Part shown: piece by piece, positions 6,831-29,995 of the stretch
Layout: every line of letters starts with the position of its first letter
Numbering within the stretch: the stretch's first letter is position 1
Assembly: GCA_964354495.1 (NCBI GenBank)
Contig: CAYHAA010000006.1
Location: forward strand, 30,001-62,000
Source: an uncultured archaeon
GTDB taxonomy: Archaea > Asgardarchaeota > Thorarchaeia > Thorarchaeales > Thorarchaeaceae
DNA: 32,000 nucleotides
Direction of reading: 5' to 3'
Notes under the pieces: generated by a model
Seen by the model: only the letters and a program-made list of their open reading frames with translations
The model's database searches: none
What the model was told of the DNA's origin: nothing
Program-made: the position numbers and the translations under genes

Positions 6831-6949
6831 TGCGGGAGGCGAGGTTCGAACTCGCGGACTCCTACGAGAGCGGATGTCTTCTCAGCATGACCCCTTGTCT
6901 TCATGTGATCTTAAGTCCGCCGCCTTTGACCAGGCTTGGCTACTCCCGC
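6831..6949 (-). tRNA. tRNA-Leu(UAA) with a 34-nt canonical 37/38 intron (6876-6909)
   Basis: Reverse complement GCGGGAG...GCGGA-CT-TAA-G|intron|A-TCCGC, long variable arm, TTCGAAC loop, CTCCCGC-A. The intron folds into a hairpin with relaxed BHB geometry. Confidence 0.93.
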
Positions 6950-7022: not shown

Positions 7023-7133
7023 TGGTGGGCCGCGCCGGATTTGAACCAGCGACCTTCGATTCCGATGAGTCGGTGACTCGATTCGGATTCTCGGTGTAAA
7101 CGAGACATCATAGCCGGGCTAGACTAGCGGCCC
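7023..7133 (-). tRNA. tRNA-Val(UAC) with a 33-nt non-canonical intron at about 44/45 (7055-7087) and encoded CCA
   Basis: Reverse complement GGGCCGC...TCTCG-TT-TAC-AC-CGAGA-A|TCCGA..GAGTC.ACC.GACTC..TCGGA..AA|GGTC-GCTGG-TTCAAAT-CCGGC-GCGGCCC-A-CCA. Removing 33 nt gives a standard 75-nt tRNA. Confidence 0.92.
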
Positions 7134-22426: not shown

Positions 22427-24319
22427 CTATTTCTCCTCCCTCTTGATTGCACCCTGAGGACATACTGCAGTACAGGTGCCGCAGAGATTGCATAGATTCT
22501 CGTCAATGACAGCTTTTTCTGTTTCGGGGTCCATGTACATCGCTGGACAGGATAGGCGGCTGAGACAACGCTTGCATGCAGTACAGGTTTCGGATTCAAC
22601 ATAATACTTGGGTAATGGAACTCCTTCGCGGCGACGATCAGCTGCTGTTAAGAGTGCACACGGTTCTTTTGAAATGAGTACTGCTGGGCTGTGATTATCC
22701 CTAGCCCATTTTACCATCTCTCTAATTTCACCAACAAGGCCAGCTATGGACTCAAAAGGATGAATCGTCTTGACGTAGTTGACGCCAAGACCTTTACAGA
22801 CTTTTTCAATGTCTATCACTGGAACCTTTTTCTGCATGCCTGTGATTCCTGTGCCTGGATGCGGCTGCTGACCGGTCATCGCTGTCGTTCGATTGTCTAG
22901 TACCACCAGACAGATTCGATGTTGATTGTACACTGCATCGATTATCCCAGGCAATCCCGATGCAAAGAAAGTACTGTCACCTATTGTTGCTACCACATCC
23001 TGATCGGTGACCTCAGTGAGTCCACATGCCGTAGTTATTGATGAACCCATATCGAATAAGATGTCTGCAGTTTCGAGAGGAGGCGCAATGCTCAGTGTAT
23101 AGCATCCGATATCTGAAGGATAGATAGCTTTTCCTCTTGTTGCTGTTCGGATTGCGTAGTAGGTCGCTCGATGAGGACAGCCTGCACATAGAAGAGGCGG
23201 TCTTGGGGGAATGCCCAGAATCCCTTGAGATTTCTTATCAATGTCTTGCCAGTTAATAGGTGTATTACAATTCGTGAGTCTAGATAATGCCTCCATGACG
23301 ACTCGAGGACTGTATTCTCCCACCTTGGAAAAGTATCCTTGTTCTTTTCCAAGAATCTCGACTTTGATACTGTTGAGCTGAGCCAATCGTCGAGCGTGGG
23401 TTTCAATGAACGGTTCGAGCTCTTCCACAATAATGACTCTTCTATGGCGACCTAGAAACTCTGTGAGCTTTTTTTGTGGGATTGGATGAGTGATCCCGAG
23501 TTTCAAGACTTCTGCAGGAATGCCCATCTGAGTAAGGGACTCTTTGACATAGTTATAGGACACAGCACATGTGATGATTCCAAGTTCTCCCTCTCCCTCC
23601 GCGAAATTCAGTGTGCTGGTTTCAGAGAATTCTCGAGCTCTCTCAATCTGACTAAGAAGCCATGGATGACGAGTTCTAGCTACAGAGGGTATCGGCACGA
23701 ACCTGAGTGGGTCTTTCTGAAATTGTACTTTGTGCGGGAGAACAGGTATTTCCCCGAACTCAATGGGTGCCCGCGTATGATTTACGCGTGTGGTCGTTCT
23801 AAAGAGCACAGGGAGCTCAAACATTTCGGAGAATTTGAATGCATCAAGAAGCATCGATTTTGCCTCGATGGGATCGGAGGGTTCCATCATGGGCATATTA
23901 CCCATCAGCGCATAGTATCTGCTATCATTCTCGTTTTGCGAACTCCACATACTCGGATCATCTGCAACAACTATGACCATTCCAGCCCGAACTCCAACGT
24001 ATGCGAGTGTCAGAAAGGGATCAGCTGCTACATTCAAACCAGGACCCTTGCACACCATCATGGATCTGACTCCAGCTACTGCGGCGGCTCCAGCGACTTC
24101 TAGCGCGACCTTTTCATTTGTACTGAATTCAAAGTAGAAATTAGGAATGTGTGGTGCCATGAGAGTGAGGTTGTCGCCGATTTCGCTACTAGGTGTTCCT
24201 GGATAGAGAGCAACGACACGTACTCCTGCCTCCAAGACACCTCGCGCAATTGCCTCATTTGCTAGAAGTAGCATTTTCTTTCCGGGGTTGTTTTCGAGTA
24301 GTTCCTGAGACTTGGGCAA
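22427..24319 (-). CDS. iorA: Indolepyruvate:ferredoxin oxidoreductase alpha subunit (TTG start)
   Basis: Motifs NEAIARG, YPGTPSSE, NEKVALE, DDPSMWSSQNEND, LCAGCPHR, DIGCYTL, GDSTFF, LDNRTTAMTGQQP; C-terminal 2x[4Fe-4S] motifs. Confidence 0.96.
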   Translation of the reverse strand: MPKSQELLENNPGKKMLLLANEAIARGVLEAGVRVVALYPGTPSSEIGDNLTLMAPHIPNFYFEFSTNEKVALEVAGAAAVAGVRSMMVCKGPGLNVAADPFLTLAYVGVRAGMVIVVADDPSMWSSQNENDSRYYALMGNMPMMEPSDPIEAKSMLLDAFKFSEMFELPVLFRTTTRVNHTRAPIEFGEIPVLPHKVQFQKDPLRFVPIPSVARTRHPWLLSQIERAREFSETSTLNFAEGEGELGIITCAVSYNYVKESLTQMGIPAEVLKLGITHPIPQKKLTEFLGRHRRVIIVEELEPFIETHARRLAQLNSIKVEILGKEQGYFSKVGEYSPRVVMEALSRLTNCNTPINWQDIDKKSQGILGIPPRPPLLCAGCPHRATYYAIRTATRGKAIYPSDIGCYTLSIAPPLETADILFDMGSSITTACGLTEVTDQDVVATIGDSTFFASGLPGIIDAVYNQHRICLVVLDNRTTAMTGQQPHPGTGITGMQKKVPVIDIEKVCKGLGVNYVKTIHPFESIAGLVGEIREMVKWARDNHSPAVLISKEPCALLTAADRRREGVPLPKYYVESETCTACKRCLSRLSCPAMYMDPETEKAVIDENLCNLCGTCTAVCPQGAIKREEK

Positions 24320-24397
24320 TGCAAATCCTCCATCGTTGACCCTGATTGCAGTTTCAATAGGAGTGCTGTATCAGTCTTGCGGTAATGGAGAAATATA

Positions 24398-24409
24398 GAA
24401 CATGTGTTC
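24398..24409. promoter_or_regulatory. Palindromic GAAC-N4-GTTC site 1 (GAACATGTGTTC)
   Basis: One of four near-identical 12-bp palindromes between 24398 and 25037. Confidence 0.65.
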
Positions 24410-24433
24410 CAACGTTCGGTGCCAAAAGACTTC

Positions 24434-24445
24434 GAACACGTGTTC
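24434..24445. promoter_or_regulatory. Palindromic GAAC-N4-GTTC site 2 (GAACACGTGTTC, perfect palindrome)
   Basis: Read directly from the sequence. Confidence 0.65.
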
Positions 24446-24458
24446 CACTAGCTATATG

Positions 24459-24476
24459 ACCCTACCATTTCCACTC
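24459..24476 (-). other. ORB-like element, reverse orientation (GAGTGGAAATGGTAGGGT)
   Basis: 15/18 identical to the forward element at 24608-24625; the two flank an approximately 33% GC spacer. Confidence 0.55.
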
Positions 24477-24550
24477 GAGATAATCAAAGGGGCTATTATA
24501 CTTTTAGATAGCGATACGTTTAAATAGCTGTTTCGAAAGCTGATTCTTAT

Positions 24551-24605
24551 CTCCATTTTTATCATCATACAGTCAATCGCTGATCAGCACTCCATTTTTA
24601 TCATC
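24551..24605 (+). repeat. 16-bp direct repeat CTCCATTTTTATCATC x2 (24551-24566, 24590-24605)
   Basis: Exact repeat with 39-bp period. The second copy lies 2 nt before the forward ORB-like element. Confidence 0.85.
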
Positions 24606-24607
24606 TG

Positions 24608-24627
24608 GAGTGGAAACGGAGGGGTGT
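24608..24627 (+). other. ORB-like element (GAGTGGAAACGGAGGGGTGT)
   Basis: Has the GTGGAAAC..AGGGG core and G-string of archaeal origin recognition boxes. The last 16 bp are identical to 28773-28788. Confidence 0.65.
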
Positions 24628-24681
24628 TACCCCAATAGTCTTTTGACCTCATACAGAAATATATCCACATAAGAGTCACTC

Positions 24682-24693
24682 GAACACGTGTTC
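24682..24693. promoter_or_regulatory. Palindromic GAAC-N4-GTTC site 3 (GAACACGTGTTC)
   Basis: Read directly from the sequence. Confidence 0.65.
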
Positions 24694-24716
24694 TAGGACT
24701 CGGGTTACAATCCGCT

Positions 24717-25004
24717 TCAAACCTCTTTCACAACCTGATACACTCTAAGCTTGAGAATATCCTGGTACATTGAAAACAGACTATCGAATATGCTTCGATG
24801 CTCATCAGGAACAATGATCGCGGAATCTGCTACTGCCTCAGCTCCTGAACACTCATCTAAGAGACCTTGTTTGCGTTTTTCTCTTATTTCAGACTTAGTT
24901 CGCCAGGTATATGTATATCCATACAGTTCCTTAGTGAATGCTACTCGCCGTGCATTACTTTGCCTCGCATGCCTACAGTCATAAAGATAGAGATACGAAA
25001 CCAT
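24717..25004 (-). CDS. Small stand-alone protein with a Cas2/VapD-like N-terminal motif (95 aa)
   Basis: MVSYLYLYD (hydrophobic strand ending in YD, as in Cas2), RRVAFTKELYGY, GLLDE, SAIIVP. Fold assignment is by eye. Confidence 0.6.
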   Translation of the reverse strand: MVSYLYLYDCRHARQSNARRVAFTKELYGYTYTWRTKSEIREKRKQGLLDECSGAEAVADSAIIVPDEHRSIFDSLFSMYQDILKLRVYQVVKEV

Positions 25005-25025
25005 TTCAATCAGACCAGTGTCACA

Positions 25026-25037
25026 GAACACATGTTC
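25026..25037. promoter_or_regulatory. Palindromic GAAC-N4-GTTC site 4 (GAACACATGTTC)
   Basis: Begins 22 nt upstream of the ATG at 25004, within the divergent promoter region. Confidence 0.65.
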
Positions 25038-25158
25038 CGATTTTCAACTCGTGTAATACATGTAATTCATAGCATCTAGGGAAAAGGTTAAGCGTGAGTA
25101 GCTTGGCTCTCCGGTCCGAAGATAGCTTCGGGCATAGCTTGATTCAGAGGAATGCTGC

Positions 25159-26460
25159 ATGAATCGCATTGGTCTGCGTAAAGAAGAGAAGGCTTTTGAA
25201 TCCAGAGCTCCACTGATACCTGAACATGTCAAGTCTTTACGAGATCAACACAAGATCGACTTCATTGTAGAACCTAACAAACAACGTGCTTTCTCAGAAA
25301 ATGAATACAAGAAAGTCGGCGCAACCATCACCCCTCTGAAAGGAAGCGGTGCCCAAGTAGTTTTCGGAATCAAGGAGATGCCAATTGGTTTCTTCGAGAA
25401 AGATGTCGTTTATGTCTTCTTCAGCCACACAATCAAGGGGCAGGAACATAACATGCCCATGCTTCGAAATATACTTCAAGCAGGTGCAACCCTTGTTGAC
25501 TATGAACGCGTTGTGGATCAGAAGGGAAAACGTCTCATCTTCTTTGGTAACTGGGCAGGCATGGCCGGTATTTCAGATACATTCCATGTTCTTGGAGAGC
25601 GACTAAGAGTAGAAGGTATCAGTTCTAATCCGTTTACTGGAATGAAATCAACATTGAAACTGAAGAACCTGGAGGCAGTCATGGAAGAATTCAGGCTCTT
25701 GGGTAAACGAATTAATGATCAAGGACTTCCCAAAGAGCTCACGCCATTCGTTGTTGGATTTGCTGGATATGGTAATGTCTCTCAAGGAGCCCAAAAGATA
25801 TTCGATATCTTGCCTCATGAAGTAATAGAACCAGAGAAGCTCTCAACCCTTAAGCCAAAAGAGAATGTCTTGTACAAGTGCATCTTCAAGGAAGAGCATA
25901 TGGTTCAACCTAAGAGTCCATCAACAAAGTTCAATCTTCAAGACTACTACGACACAGGAAAAGCCAACTACATAGGCGTTTTCGAGAAGTACGTTCCCTA
26001 TCTCTCGATACTGATGAATTGTATCTACTGGACTGATAAGTATCCGACATTGGTGACCAAGGACTTCATTCGCAAACACTGGAATGAGGCCAATCGAAAG
26101 TTGCGTGTTATCGGTGACATCTCTTGTGATATTGATGGTGCAATTGAGTTCACAATGAGAAGCACAACACCTGGTAATCCAGCATTCACCTACATCATCA
26201 ATGAGGACCGTGCAGAACTTGGTGTGAAAGGCAATGGTCCAGTTGTCATGGCCGTTGACAACTTGCCATGTGAGCTTCCACGAGAATCATCAATGTCATT
26301 CAGTGGAACACTGATTCAATTCATCCCTGCATTCGCGACTGCTGACTTCACTGCATCCTCATTTGAGAAACTTAATCTGCCGAAAGAAATCAAGGATGCA
26401 GTCATCGCGTACCGAGGAAAACTAACGAAGAATTATGAATATCTTAAGGAATACCTATAG
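25159..26460 (+). CDS. Lysine-ketoglutarate reductase / saccharopine dehydrogenase (lysine-forming) domain protein, AASS N-terminal-like
   Basis: Motifs IGLRKE..FESRAPLIP, FFSHTIKGQ.HNM, DYERVVD..GKRLIFFG.WAG.AG, GYGNVSQGAQ, NCIYW, IGDISCD..GAIEFT, MAVDNLPCELPRESS. Confidence 0.9.
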   Translation: MNRIGLRKEEKAFESRAPLIPEHVKSLRDQHKIDFIVEPNKQRAFSENEYKKVGATITPLKGSGAQVVFGIKEMPIGFFEKDVVYVFFSHTIKGQEHNMPMLRNILQAGATLVDYERVVDQKGKRLIFFGNWAGMAGISDTFHVLGERLRVEGISSNPFTGMKSTLKLKNLEAVMEEFRLLGKRINDQGLPKELTPFVVGFAGYGNVSQGAQKIFDILPHEVIEPEKLSTLKPKENVLYKCIFKEEHMVQPKSPSTKFNLQDYYDTGKANYIGVFEKYVPYLSILMNCIYWTDKYPTLVTKDFIRKHWNEANRKLRVIGDISCDIDGAIEFTMRSTTPGNPAFTYIINEDRAELGVKGNGPVVMAVDNLPCELPRESSMSFSGTLIQFIPAFATADFTASSFEKLNLPKEIKDAVIAYRGKLTKNYEYLKEYL

Positions 26461-26474
26461 GAGGACAAAACCAA

Positions 26475-27785
26475 ATGAAGAAAGTGCTCTGTCTGGGTGC
26501 CGGACTCGTTGCTCGTCCATACATCCAATATCTTAGTGAGAATGGCTTTCATGTCTTTGTTGCCAGCAGAACAAAGAGCAAAGCTGAACACCTGATAGAT
26601 GGTTGTGAGAATGCAGAGGCTATTCCCTTCAACATAGCCACAGATGATGCTCTTCTTGAAGAGCTGACAACCAAAGCGGATCTCGTCTGTTCATTACTTC
26701 CATACATTCATCATGTCAAGGCAGCAAAGGTTGCAGTAAGACACAAGAAACACTTCTGTACGACATCCTACATCTCAGCCGAGATGAAGGCTCTAGACGA
26801 AGATGCCAAAAAAGCGGGAGTCCTACTTCTCAATGAGTGTGGCGTTGACCCTGGTATGGATCATATGACTGCCATGCAGATAATAGACCATGTTCATAAC
26901 AAAGGAGGCGAGATTAGGAGCTTCACATCATTCACTGGCGGTCTTCCAGCTCCTGATGATAATAACAATCCATATGGCTACAAACTATCATGGAGCCCTC
27001 GCGGAGTTCTTCTTGCTGGAAGGAATGATGCTCACTTTTTGCGAGATGGCAAGGAGGTCTTGATTCGTGGGGCAGACCTGTTCCAAAACTATGAGCTGAT
27101 GGAGGTGCCAGGAGCAGGCACTTTCGAGGCGTATCCAAATCGTGATAGTATGTCCTACATTGAGATTTACAATATACCTGAAACAAAGACGATGCTCCGT
27201 GGTACTCTTCGCAACATAGGCTGGTGTGAAACACTTGATAAGATAGCAGGCTTGGGTCTACTGGACCTAGAGGAAAGATCTCTAGCTAACACGACATATG
27301 CAGCCATGATGAGAGACCTAACATCAGCAGGTAACATCAAGACCGCAGTCGCCAAGTTCTGTGGGGTTGCAAAGAATCATCCAATCTTAAAACGCCTTGA
27401 ATGGCTTGGGCTGTTCGATGAAGTCATCATACCACCTGGTATCAACACAAGGCTTGATGCACTATGTCATCTCTTCGAACAGAAGCTACAATATGCACCC
27501 GGAGAACGCGATATGCTAGTGATGCACCACGAGTTCATAGCTGAGTATAAAGACAAGAAGCAGAAGATCACATCGACACTCATTGACTATGGAGTTCCCA
27601 ATGGCGACAGCTCTATGTCAAGAACAGTAGCACTACCGGTTGCTATTGCTAGCAGAATGATACTTGAAAGAAAGATCAAACTCACCGGAGTTCATCGCCC
27701 AGTCGTTGCCGCCCTGTACGACCCCATTCTTCAAGAGCTTGCGGGTCTAGGTATAGCCCTCGAAGAGCACGTATCTAATCTGTAA
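26475..27785 (+). CDS. Saccharopine dehydrogenase (glutamate-forming), Lys9/AASS C-terminal-like
   Basis: Motifs VLCLGAGLVARP, SLLPY..H, TTSYIS, NECGVDPGMDH, GGLPAP..NNNPYGYKLSWSPRG, YPNRDS, LRGTLR, SSMSRTVALP; SD GGAGG. Confidence 0.93.
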   Translation: MKKVLCLGAGLVARPYIQYLSENGFHVFVASRTKSKAEHLIDGCENAEAIPFNIATDDALLEELTTKADLVCSLLPYIHHVKAAKVAVRHKKHFCTTSYISAEMKALDEDAKKAGVLLLNECGVDPGMDHMTAMQIIDHVHNKGGEIRSFTSFTGGLPAPDDNNNPYGYKLSWSPRGVLLAGRNDAHFLRDGKEVLIRGADLFQNYELMEVPGAGTFEAYPNRDSMSYIEIYNIPETKTMLRGTLRNIGWCETLDKIAGLGLLDLEERSLANTTYAAMMRDLTSAGNIKTAVAKFCGVAKNHPILKRLEWLGLFDEVIIPPGINTRLDALCHLFEQKLQYAPGERDMLVMHHEFIAEYKDKKQKITSTLIDYGVPNGDSSMSRTVALPVAIASRMILERKIKLTGVHRPVVAALYDPILQELAGLGIALEEHVSNL

Positions 27786-27823
27786 CACGTTAGACTCTAG
27801 ACTGCAGAAGAGCTGATACATCA

Positions 27824-28465
27824 CTACTCACGAACTCGCATTTGTATGGCTGTCAGAATCTCTTCTGCTCTCTCTGTTTCTTTCTGAACCTCTTTCAGCT
27901 CAGTCTTCAGCCTGTATGTATATCCGGAACGGTTTCCATATCGTTCTAGGTGACCCTTACCGTTATTCCACATTCGTGCAAGATATGTCGAAGATGTACT
28001 CTTGGGCAAATCCTCACTGAATGAATCTTCATAGATCTCAGCAACATCCAACGATGAGAACTTGCCATGTTTGAAAGATGCATAGATGATGAGCTGCATC
28101 TTTTCATAGCTGCTCATAGAGTCAAAACTGCTTTCATCGTACCCCGTATCTGGCACTTCCCCAATGACCTCTTCAAAGCTGCAACCAGTACTGGTTTCTA
28201 AGAATACTTTGAACTTAGCAAACATTTCTTCTACACTGCCGCCCTTGACTTGAAAACTCGACTCTTCGCCCATAGTTTCATCGGATACTACTATCTTGAA
28301 ATCAAAGGGTGTTTCTGTCAGCGAGAGGATCTTACTGAATCTGTTGAGTGCCTCATTTGGATTCACATACTTGCACTGGAAGATTTCACGGAGACCTGGG
28401 GCAGAATAATATGTGAATTCATACACATAGTTCGTTCGGTCTCCATCACTCAATTCTATCACCAC
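27824..28465 (-). CDS. Uncharacterised protein with a C-terminal winged helix-turn-helix domain (GTG start)
   Basis: C-terminal segment SYEKMQLII..F..GKFSSLDVAEIYEDSFSEDLPKSTSSTYLARM...GHLERYG....YTYRL has a wHTH pattern. Confidence 0.75.
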   Translation of the reverse strand: MVIELSDGDRTNYVYEFTYYSAPGLREIFQCKYVNPNEALNRFSKILSLTETPFDFKIVVSDETMGEESSFQVKGGSVEEMFAKFKVFLETSTGCSFEEVIGEVPDTGYDESSFDSMSSYEKMQLIIYASFKHGKFSSLDVAEIYEDSFSEDLPKSTSSTYLARMWNNGKGHLERYGNRSGYTYRLKTELKEVQKETERAEEILTAIQMRVRE

Positions 28466-28908
28466 TTGAAGATACTATCTACTTCATTGATTCATTCACA
28501 GAATACTAGAGTGTCCGTCCAAATAAGTGTGAGTATGTGAATTGTACATACGGAGATAAGAGATACATACCGCGCCTGTTCAATTTCAGAACCCATCCAT
28601 CTCGTTTCTTGTGTGCTCACGTCCTTCTTCGTCTTTGAACTAGCAATAAAGGGTTATGAGCGCTCTATACGCGAAAATAAGGAAGTTGTCCAACCTTTTT
28701 ATCATTCACAGAATTATATGGCTTGTGAATGAAGTCATAAGGATTTCATATGTGCGATTACTTAGTTCCATAGGAAACGGAGGGGTGTGTCCATTCACAA
28801 TGATAAGAAGAGCTATTACTGCTTAGTTGAGTACAAAAAGCATACAAAACACCGATTTCCATAGTGGATTCACAATATTGGCGCCATTCACACGAATTCA
28901 TTGTGAAT
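28361..28908. repeat. Cluster of 10 ATTCACA/TGTGAAT heptads in direct and inverted orientation
   Basis: Forward copies start at 28361, 28494, 28704, 28793, 28868, 28886; reverse copies at 28412, 28536, 28724, 28902. Includes the perfect inverted repeat TCATTCACA-N13-TGTGAATGA (28702-28732). Confidence 0.8.
28765..28788 (+). other. ORB-like element (GTTCCATAGGAAACGGAGGGGTGT)
   Basis: Has the TTCCA..GGAA internal dyad plus G-string, close to the canonical archaeal ORB, and is followed by an approximately 33% GC stretch. Confidence 0.7.
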
Positions 28909-28935
28909 TAGTGTCAATGAGGTTAGTCTGTGAAG

Positions 28936-29934
28936 CTATATCGGCAACAAATAATCAGTTGAACTCTCTCCCAAAACAAGTTGCTGAAAGATATCTCCAG
29001 TTGTTGTGTCTGTCACTCTTTCTAAACGCCCTCTTGTTCTCACAGACATTCCTGCTGAAACCTGTTCAGTGAATCGTCCTCGAAAACTAATGAGTCTTCT
29101 TAGACTAGGGCAGTCAGATGACTCGACAATATAGGTACATGGTGTGAAGATGGAGTCATGATCATCCTCCACTCTGCAACGAACTTTGCAGGAACCCATC
29201 ATGTCATACAACATTTTTCCATAGAACTCATCGGTTTCATCATGGCGCTTAACCAGCCTAACGAAGAATTCGTATTTATCAAAGAGTCCCTGTAGGACTT
29301 TCTTGCTCTCGATTTTGCTAAGTATGTCATGATGTTGAGTCAAGTCACTCCATCTGAATCTTACATGTGCATTCAGAAGGTTTCCAGAATAGGGCCTGAT
29401 ACCCACAATTTTCCCATAGCCCTCAGACAGGATATCATAGAATTTCCGACACGCTGTACTCCCATAGACTACGAGATCGATATCCGATCTATCTGTTGCT
29501 ATGCCCAACAGTTGCGACCCTGTAATGCCAATGTCCGACCATGCTACTCCAGTCGTTTGTACTAGTCTTTCAGCAAGCATGACTGTTGCTTCCCCCAGTC
29601 TACTCAGAGTACCACAATTATTCTTCATCTGAGCCAGACCCTCGACTGGTCCGAGAATCGAAGCTATTTTCCGTTTCGGGACCGATTGAATGACTCTTCC
29701 GTGAACCTTGCTTAACCACAGACACTCCGAAAATCGGGAGTTCAAGTATTCATATCTCTCATTGAGATTATACAGCTTGCGATAATGTAGACTCGATTTG
29801 TTTGGACTATCTTCTGGCACATATCTCAAATATGCTATGATGCGATCCTGTGGGTGCACCACTCCCTTCACCTCAAAGATCAGATTCTCAGAAGTGATGA
29901 GAAAGTATCCCTCAACAGGATTCTCAGACGACAT
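28936..29934 (-). CDS. Archaeal predicted nucleotidyltransferase (COG1665-like, Pol-beta superfamily)
   Basis: Motifs FEVKGVVHPQDRIIAYLRYVP, IGITGSQLLG....SDIDLVVYG, FTPCTYIV, SFRGRFTEQ. Start chosen at MSSENP. Confidence 0.8.
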   Translation of the reverse strand: MSSENPVEGYFLITSENLIFEVKGVVHPQDRIIAYLRYVPEDSPNKSSLHYRKLYNLNERYEYLNSRFSECLWLSKVHGRVIQSVPKRKIASILGPVEGLAQMKNNCGTLSRLGEATVMLAERLVQTTGVAWSDIGITGSQLLGIATDRSDIDLVVYGSTACRKFYDILSEGYGKIVGIRPYSGNLLNAHVRFRWSDLTQHHDILSKIESKKVLQGLFDKYEFFVRLVKRHDETDEFYGKMLYDMMGSCKVRCRVEDDHDSIFTPCTYIVESSDCPSLRRLISFRGRFTEQVSAGMSVRTRGRLERVTDTTTGDIFQQLVLGESSTDYLLPI

Positions 29935-29995
29935 ATCTATCGTTTCCTGAAAGCATAGTATGGTATTAAAGCAGTTCACTCAATAGTCACTTCTC

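Follow-up and report, generated by a model that had tools for sequence, protein, structure and literature searches.

The 32,000-nucleotide stretch of Thorarchaeota DNA analyzed here (the window; C6:30001-62000 in the 3.3-Mb, 51-contig assembly G000) probably carries, at window positions 24398-24693, the core of a chromosomal replication origin of the oriC1 type whose initiator gene is unlinked. We put the probability of this reading at about 0.78. At this locus (module 1, or simply the module), two origin recognition boxes (ORBs) in inverted orientation that match the published consensus, each a TCCA-N-TGGAAA dyad with a G-string, flank an AT-rich element, which is the arrangement that characterizes the class. 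An initial annotation had proposed a candidate origin at this position from the letters of the sequence, and all features that could be computed are consistent with an origin of the ORB/Orc1 type. The homology between the module and origins that adjoin orc1-1 in other Asgard lineages is the strongest evidence for the oriC1 assignment.

The initial annotation rested on a pair of similar 18-mers, namely GAGTGGAAATGGTAGGGT on the minus strand (24459-24476) and GAGTGGAAACGGAGGGGT on the plus strand (24608-24625). These are identical at 15 of 18 positions, as had been stated, and the inverted repeat reaches further, to 30-nt arms (24459-24488 and 24596-24625) with 80% complementarity. The AT-rich spacer, described as about 130 bp at about 33% GC, measures 131 bp between the 18-mers and has 34% GC. 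Such a low GC content is found in only 0.5% of 131-nt windows of the genome (median 48%), and the lowest-GC 100-nt stretch of the entire 32 kb falls inside this spacer. The 16-bp direct repeat CTCCATTTTTATCATC reported within it was likewise recovered, with exact copies at 24551-24566 and 24590-24605. For the resemblance to ORBs of known origins that the initial annotation had noted, the boxes agree with the published euryarchaeal consensus, GTTCCAGTGGAAAC-AAA----GGGGG (PMC1868953), and with the Pyrococcus furiosus ORB1/2 oligonucleotides, which contain CATTTCCACTGGA followed by a C-run (PMC1904270). The form found in relatives, (G)TTCCAGTGGAAATGAAGGGGT, is a classical ORB with a short spacing between the dyad and the G-string. 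The pattern GTGGAAAY-N4-GGG has exactly two copies in the 3.3 Mb (both strands), and both sit at the module. Because the motif is confined to the module in the whole assembly, it is not scattered at many unrelated promoters, an outcome that the initial annotation had named as speaking against an origin. The suspicion that the outward G-strings may depart from the textbook arrangement did not hold up. The inverted ORBs of H. hispanica oriC1 have the same polarity, their outermost run being CCCCCC on the left side and GGGGGGGG on the right (PMC3936714), and the G-strings also point outward in the orc1-adjacent origins of another Asgard family (f12).

The intergenic region that holds these elements extends from the probable start of iorA (ATG 24274) to the stop of a 104-codon open reading frame (ORF; 24717). 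Within the spacer are a TATA-like box and the 11-nt motif ATCTCCATTTT (Table 1). The TATA-like box is kept in four Thorarchaeaceae genera and has the form AAAGTATTTATAC in family f12. A second CTCCATTTTT copy sits between the ATCTCCATTTT motif and the right ORB (ORB-R), and two of the three genome occurrences of TCCATTTTTAT are at the module. Conserved motifs within a duplex unwinding element (DUE) have precedent, since Sulfolobus oriC1, a 130-bp ORB3-DUE-ORB2 element bound by Orc1-1, contains an essential ucm motif in the middle of its DUE that is bound by UBP (PMC12141716). Around the ORB pair there are four GAACAYGTGTTC palindromes (P1 to P4, starting at 24398, 24434, 24682, and 25026).

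Comparison among relatives indicates that these elements are maintained as a unit. In genomes of the same genus the module is 66–82% identical (BLAST), and the conserved stretch begins exactly at the left palindrome and ends with the right one; the flanks diverge while this non-coding segment stays conserved. In an alignment of eight genomes of the host genus (A1), the ORBs, the palindromes, the TATA-like box, and TATCTCCATTTTTAT are invariant and the sequence in between drifts. Palindrome P2 is invariant in these eight genomes and is present as GAACAYGTGTTC in a larger alignment of 16 genomes from four genera, in which the elements have the same order, the spacer is 127–133 nt long, and its GC fraction is 0.26–0.39. 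A strict inverted-ORB pattern, searched across the class (87 genomes), matched 33 genomes in five genera. A symmetric pattern matched 47 of the 85 genomes of the family Thorarchaeaceae (f1), representing nine genera, and one of 314 other Asgard genomes (G206, family f12). Neither pattern produced control hits, and each identifies one locus per genome, with the exception of two in G004. Among the 85 Thorarchaeaceae genomes, at least 47 have the module as a single copy in conserved synteny. The two G004 copies (C69:112962-113124 and C115:5760-5923) represent either a true duplication or two strains binned together (contamination 6%).

The alignments also bear on the nature of the inverted repeat. 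Where the two arms vary, they do so independently of each other: at arm position 8, for instance, the left arm has C, T, or G and the right arm always C. RNAalifold on the module alignment returned the inverted repeat and a palindrome only, with no structure internal to the loop, and a search of 24200-29000 against Rfam gave nothing at E <= 1, a result with which an undescribed RNA is still compatible. Since the arms vary independently, RNAalifold recovers only the arms and a palindrome, and Rfam gives no match, the arms are better regarded as two protein-binding sites than as a hairpin or RNA.

Homologous loci in other Asgard lineages connect the module to an initiator gene. In G206, the order is ORB(-), AT-rich spacer, ORB(+), a 160-aa gene (-), an intergenic region, and orc1-1 (+); the intergenic region before orc1-1 contains a single ORB together with eleven GTTAACA heptads. 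Over its C-terminal ~85 residues, the 160-aa protein is homologous to P0002, a 213-aa protein encoded to the right of the module. The same layout is found in four more f12 genomes (five inspected in all), with a gap of about 185 bp from ORB(-) to ORB(+), and a P0002-like gene and the top-scoring orc1 are divergent neighbors in 14 of the 14 f12 genomes that have both on one contig. A profile of the P0002 family matched 343 representative proteins. Two of the three members inspected adjoin a divergent gene for a 413–414-aa Orc1/Cdc6 protein with an ORB in the intergenic region, and one of these Orc1-paired members comes from a contig with an Orc1 cluster named for the Asgard class Candidatus Ranarchaeia. 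No ORB was found on the contig of the third member (P0252).

The most complete arrangement is found on L115, a contig of a further Asgard lineage. Its first half consists of the PolD DP1 gene, orc1-1 (379 bits to 2QBY_A), ATTCACA heptads with an ORB, and a P0002-like gene (P0250). The second half continues with a 97-aa gene, a palindrome, ORB(-), ~130 bp of AT-rich sequence, ORB(+), a palindrome, iorA, and iorB. The 97-aa protein is homologous to the product of orf104, the gene immediately right of the module (hhalign probability 99.6, E 7e-24), and iorA, which adjoins the homologous module on L115, is also the conserved left neighbor of the module in the Thorarchaeaceae genera. Because it is found in other Asgard lineages, the unit comprising iorBA, palindrome-ORB-DUE-ORB-palindrome, orf104, P0002, heptads with an ORB, and orc1-1 predates Thorarchaeaceae. 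In this family, two dehydrogenase genes appear to have been inserted between orf104 and P0002, and orc1-1 left the unit. On L115, the orf104 and P0002 homologs are adjacent and have no LKR-like/saccharopine dehydrogenase pair between them, which looks like an insertion into the origin unit in Thorarchaeaceae. As the homologous unit sits beside orc1-1 in other Asgard archaea, Thorarchaeaceae would have retained the ancestral oriC1 without the initiator gene once linked to it.

For the initiator genes, the initial annotation correctly noted that no cdc6/orc1 lies within 24 kb to the left or 7 kb to the right; there is none in the window. The only two Cdc6_C matches of the genome are both on contig C6, beyond the right end of the window, at distances of 24 kb and 64 kb from the ORB pair. 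The more distant gene is of the Orc1-1 type, with 329 bits to A. pernix ORC1 (2V1U) and 325 to S. solfataricus Orc1-1 (2QBY_A) in phmmer searches against PDB, and both of these structures were solved on origin DNA. The paralog at 24 kb has its best match in 1FNN (195 bits), with 154 bits to 2QBY_A. This second paralog lies 19–42 kb from the module across five genera (mostly ~25 kb). The Orc1-1-type gene is located 63–76 kb away in two genera, and the distance is 1.02 Mb in G073, a Thorarchaeaceae relative from a different genus that is represented by one 2.58-Mb contig. Initiator adjacency is a usual rather than a strictly defining trait of the oriC1 class, and it is found at the homologous Asgard loci. 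The region upstream of orc1-1 was itself considered as an origin. At C6:119663-119752 and G073:C1:784513-784532 it contains one or two mini-ORB dyads (TCCACTGGA and TCCATTGGA), and in both G000 and G073 it is short and has no G-string and no AT-rich tract. With a mini-ORB dyad only and no AT-richness, it was rejected as an origin and is read as a likely autoregulatory operator.

Under the oriC1 reading, monomers of the Orc1-1-type initiator encoded 64 kb away would bind the two inverted ORBs, with the winged-helix domain on the TCCA-N-TGGA dyad and the AAA+/initiator-specific motif (ISM) domain on the outward G-string. The bound initiators would load MCM onto the 131-bp AT-rich spacer, which would melt, and replication would then run bidirectionally from the module. 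In this reading, the third ORB 4.2 kb rightward, the heptads around it, the flanking palindromes, orf104, and P0002 belong to one ancestral unit with the core. It is from this arrangement of elements that binding by Orc1, loading of MCM, melting, and firing at the module are deduced, and an accessory role in origin function is suggested in the same manner for the palindromes, the mid-spacer motif, the heptads, orf104, and P0002. A bolder proposal, which we regard as tentative and rather doubtful, is that Asgard archaea possess an origin cassette beyond ORB-DUE-ORB, in which the ferredoxin-like orf104 family and the P0002/P0244 family, whose C-terminal domain resembles a winged helix, would help Orc1-1 as accessory factors in origin recognition or licensing. 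Their putative sites would be the GAACAYGTGTTC palindromes on either side of the ORB pair and the RTTMACA heptads near the third ORB, and Thorarchaeaceae would rely on an initiator provided wholly in trans, at a distance of up to 1 Mb.

Strand composition is partly in agreement with an origin at the module. On C6, the global minimum of the amino-keto (M-K) disparity is at 54,420 and the maximum of the cumulative GC skew is at 51,633, with the module at 54,459-54,625. The best change point in third-codon GC skew, with gene orientation controlled, is at 54–55 kb of the same contig. In G073, the cumulative GC-skew maximum of a 400-kb interval is 3 kb from the module, and a local M-K minimum is found there. 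A switch in gene orientation at the module was also considered as a signal and rejected, as the switch measured over 40 kb on each side does not stand out against the rest of the genome.

Several observations weigh against an origin at this position. Although the skew flip at the module ranks first of 2815 genome positions, other loci are nearly as strong. The module coincides with a maximum of the cumulative GC skew, opposite in polarity to the rule for bacterial origins, and the switch stems from a 30–40-kb block to its right. No two-replichore pattern was found in forty 20-kb samples across the 2.58-Mb G073 contig, so skew cannot place an origin or a terminus in that genome. Given the right-hand block, the reversed polarity, and the lack of a replichore pattern in G073, the skew is compatible with an origin and is not probative. 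In several Asgard classes, no skew signature of bidirectional replication is reported (PMC11291895). Furthermore, no orc1/cdc6 adjoins the module in Thorarchaeaceae, and the nearest one (24 kb) is a different paralog. Part of the conservation within the spacer could serve transcription, given its conserved TATA-like box. Finally, because a locus on contig C28 carries conserved ORBs and an AT-rich tract, the module need not be the sole or main origin. This locus (C28:4960-5125; L096) has a GAACACGTGTTC palindrome, ~90 bp at 23–30% GC, a GC clamp, the mini-ORB CCAGTGGAAAC, and, in direct orientation, a full ORB carrying its G-string. Of the 27 genomes of the genus, 21 have this locus, which is surrounded by ordinary chromosomal genes and may be a second origin. 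As for the right-hand block itself (window 24600 on to C6:~84000, and G073:C1:1,807,000-1,847,000), it has a strongly negative GC skew, a positive M-K disparity, and slightly lower GC, and in both genera it begins at the module. No 9-mer is enriched in C6:54.4-86 kb, so that dense 9-bp repeat arrays beside the origin were rejected for this genome.

The alternative that best withstands these comparisons, although we consider it unlikely, is that the module is a cluster of Orc1 sites that is now silent, dormant, or secondary (an oriC1 relic, or a titrating or regulatory site), with the main start of replication located elsewhere, for example at the C28 locus, or proceeding in an origin-independent manner. 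The departure of the initiator gene from the locus, the conserved ORB-bearing AT-rich locus on C28, and the absence of a replichore-scale skew centered on the module in G073 are all in line with this possibility. There are also parallels in haloarchaea, in which the ORB cluster of H. hispanica oriC2D titrates Cdc6 rather than firing (PMC3936714) and both dormant origins and origin-less growth are known. However, a relic would be expected to decay, and the ORBs, the spacer length (127–133 nt), the AT-richness, and the internal motifs are kept across at least nine genera. Moreover, an inverted pair around a DUE has a geometry that suits MCM loading and not titration, and the C28 locus has direct ORBs only, on one side of its AT-rich tract.

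It is improbable that the module is instead a transcriptional control region in which the palindromes are operators, the TATA-like box is the promoter of iorAB, orf104, or an unannotated small RNA, and the likeness to ORBs is incidental. The spacer does contain the conserved B recognition element (BRE)/TATA-like sequence AAAGTATAAATAG, which the invariant ATCTCCATTTT follows some 25 nt downstream; one of the palindromes overlaps orf104 at its 5' end, and the 12-bp palindrome occurs at seven other genome sites, mostly intergenic. Yet the ORBs fit the consensus over about 20 nt including the G-string and are unique in the genome, the same elements adjoin orc1-1 in other lineages, and a promoter within an origin is compatible with origin function. 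The RNAalifold result and the lack of compensatory change in the arms are likewise unfavorable. Least probable is that the inverted repeat represents the ends of a mobile element (a miniature inverted-repeat transposable element (MITE) or insertion sequence (IS)), a DNA/RNA hairpin, or a structured RNA, since the complementary 30-nt arms and a strongly negative alignment fold z-score driven by them are countered by a single copy in the genome, a fixed syntenic site between iorA and orf104 across genera, and uncompensated arm variation around a ~144-nt loop that has no conserved structure.

Table 1. Sequence elements and genes of the proposed origin region (window coordinates; a dot marks features given no strand).
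Feature	Position	Strand	Description
ORB-L, left origin recognition box	24459..24481	-	Plus strand reads ACCC, N5, TTTCCACT, N, GA; G-string leftward, away from spacer
Spacer, putative duplex unwinding element (DUE)	24477..24607	.	131 bp, 34% GC
TATA-like box, mid-spacer	24518..24527	+	GTTTAAATAG here; AAGTATAAATAG in most relatives
11-nt motif ATCTCCATTTT	24549..24559	+	Invariant in 16 genomes; overlaps direct repeat copy 1 (24551-24566)
ORB-R, right origin recognition box	24603..24625	+	GGAGTGGAAACGGAGGGGT here, TTCCAGTGGAAATGAAGGGGT in relatives; G-string rightward
Palindrome P1	24398..24409	.	GAACATGTGTTC, one mismatch to GAACACGTGTTC; position kept in genus alignment A1
Palindrome P2	24434..24445	.	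GAACACGTGTTC (core of TTGGAACACGTGTTCCAA); 14 nt left of ORB-L
Palindrome P3	24682..24693	.	GAACACGTGTTC; 56 nt right of ORB-R
Palindrome P4	25026..25037	.	GAACACATGTTC, one mismatch; at 5' end of orf104
iorA, indolepyruvate/2-oxoacid:ferredoxin oxidoreductase alpha subunit	22427..24274	-	Pfam POR_N, TPP_enzyme_C, Fer4
orf104 (P0001), small conserved protein	24717..25031	-	Origin-linked; 104-aa ORF
AlaDH/PNT-fold (LKR-like) gene and saccharopine dehydrogenase gene	25159-27785	+	Adjacent, between orf104 and P0002
P0002, 213-aa protein	27824..28465	-	Origin-linked; at least 79% identical across Thorarchaeota
Module 2, conserved non-coding region	28466..28935	.	Eight intergenic ATTCACA heptads and third ORB
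ORB3, third full ORB	28765..28789	+	GTTCCATAGGAAACGGAGGGGTGTG; 16-nt core common with ORB-R

The perfect 12-mer palindrome has nine copies in the genome, mostly intergenic, compared with ~0.2 expected (our estimate from the 12-mer frequency). Because of these nine copies, it is not origin-specific, though four sites cluster at the module. Other palindromes of the TTGGAACACGTGTTCCAA type in G000 are located at C12:46724, C15:16533, C3:64583, C6:88968, C9:33565, C9:36430, and C26:2193. Several of the distant copies are flanked by convergent genes, an unusual setting for a promoter operator. The palindrome is built from the same half-sites as the ORB dyad, TGGAAC and GTTCCA, placed in everted order. 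A second type of palindrome, GTAATACATGTAAT(T), is found at 25052-25066, to the right of P4; in most relatives, this conserved accessory motif falls between the two left palindromes (A1 columns ~55-72).

Between modules 1 and 2 are orf104 (-), the AlaDH/PNT-fold gene (+), the saccharopine dehydrogenase gene (+), and P0002 (-). To the left of module 1, the start of iorA is likely the in-frame ATG at 24274 rather than the TTG at 24319. The small gene orf104 is a real conserved gene, with 72–96% identity within the genus and 160 Thorarchaeota homologs. As most of these homologs are 94–96 aa long, its true start is probably Met10 at 25004, which would give a protein of ~95 aa. The structural model of the orf104 product (predicted local distance difference test score (pLDDT) 89) has a predicted ferredoxin-like beta-alpha-beta-beta-alpha-beta fold. 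A fold search gave no Foldseek hit at E <= 0.001, and VIA Z-scores were at background. Cas2, the nearest fold by geometry only (TM ~0.5), was rejected as an identity, with no significant structural match. P0002 has no Pfam hit even at E <= 1 and weak leads only in Atlas, and its model is poor (pLDDT 51). Judged by eye from the sequence pattern, the C-terminal ~85 aa resemble a winged helix. The same C-terminal domain is homologous to P0244 and P0250, which are divergent neighbors of orc1-1 in other Asgard lineages.

Module 2 is 70–93% identical over ~400–520 bp in five genus genomes and in each case lies ~4.2 kb from module 1. Its equivalent in f12 and L115 is the intergenic region that separates orc1-1 from the P0002-like gene. 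A duplication of module 1 was considered as its source and rejected, as only the 16-nt ORB core aligns (z = 2.7 versus shuffles). The heptad differs by lineage (ATTCACA, GTTAACA, and GTKMACA), a divergence that could be expected if a co-evolving DNA-binding protein encoded next to them recognized the heptads. Next to module 2, at the position that orc1-1 occupies in other Asgard lineages, is a gene for a 347-aa protein with a faint nucleotidyltransferase match (28936-29979, minus strand). Elsewhere in the window, Rfam places three tRNA genes at 286-372, 6831-6949, and 7026-7133, and ARAGORN detected none of the three. Two of them are 108–119 nt long and therefore contain introns. Homologs nearly identical to one of the neighboring proteins bear the name Candidatus Thorarchaeota, and the source organism is an Asgard archaeon. 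A scan for bacterial-type promoters and terminators was set aside as not applicable to archaea.

No known archaea are more closely related to eukaryotes than the Asgard archaea, and a sequence-defined origin with a named cognate initiator would make origin recognition in this group directly testable. That the origin and its initiator gene lie apart suggests that the replicator-initiator linkage of most archaea is not obligatory. In addition, the two conserved origin-linked genes, orf104 and P0002, are candidates for accessory origin factors. In the searchable literature, no ORB-defined Asgard origin was found, only inferences based on skew. Asgard origins have been placed by cumulative GC skew in Odinarchaeum LCB_4 (PMC9246712) and in Atabeyarchaeia and Freyarchaeia (PMC11291895). 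These papers give positions without ORB elements, whereas sequence elements together with comparative synteny define the Thorarchaeota origin proposed here, for which skew is ambiguous. For Odinarchaeum, too, use was made of a low M-K disparity where the origin was proposed. The cumulative GC skew has a local maximum at the module and not a minimum.

Among the described archaeal origins, the haloarchaeal oriC1 of H. hispanica and H. volcanii shares the ORB consensus and the G-string polarity with the module (PMC3936714, PMC1868953). The module differs in having neither the halophile-specific extended G-string nor the inner G-rich inverted repeat, and the haloarchaeal cdc6 is adjacent. In Pyrococcus and other Thermococcales, oriC has two ORB clusters around cdc6, beside the PolD DP1 gene (PMC1904270). 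The module resembles it in its near-identical ORB core (CATTTCCACTGGA plus a G/C-run), in its inverted long ORBs, and in a second cluster a few kb away, and the L115 unit likewise has DP1 beside orc1-1. In contrast, the spacing from G-string to dyad is ~5 nt shorter in the module, there are no multiple mini-ORB arrays, and in Thorarchaeaceae the interval between the two ORB loci is occupied by orf104, LKR, SDH (saccharopine dehydrogenase), and P0002 rather than cdc6. Compared with Sulfolobus oriC1, the GAACAYGTGTTC palindromes, the heptads, orf104, and P0002 have no described counterpart, and ATCTCCATTTT and the TATA-like box differ in sequence from ucm (PMC12141716), so that the analogy is one of position only. 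Moreover, orc1-1 is immediately adjacent in Sulfolobus, whereas it lies 64 kb from the module in this genome and as far as 1 Mb from it in relatives. The inverted ORBs, the ~130-bp AT-rich spacer, the motif in the middle of the DUE, the extra ORB outside the pair, and the Orc1-1-type initiator are nevertheless features that the module has in common with Sulfolobus/Saccharolobus oriC1. The module is probably a canonical ORB-type oriC1 in a new lineage, with its initiator gene unlinked.

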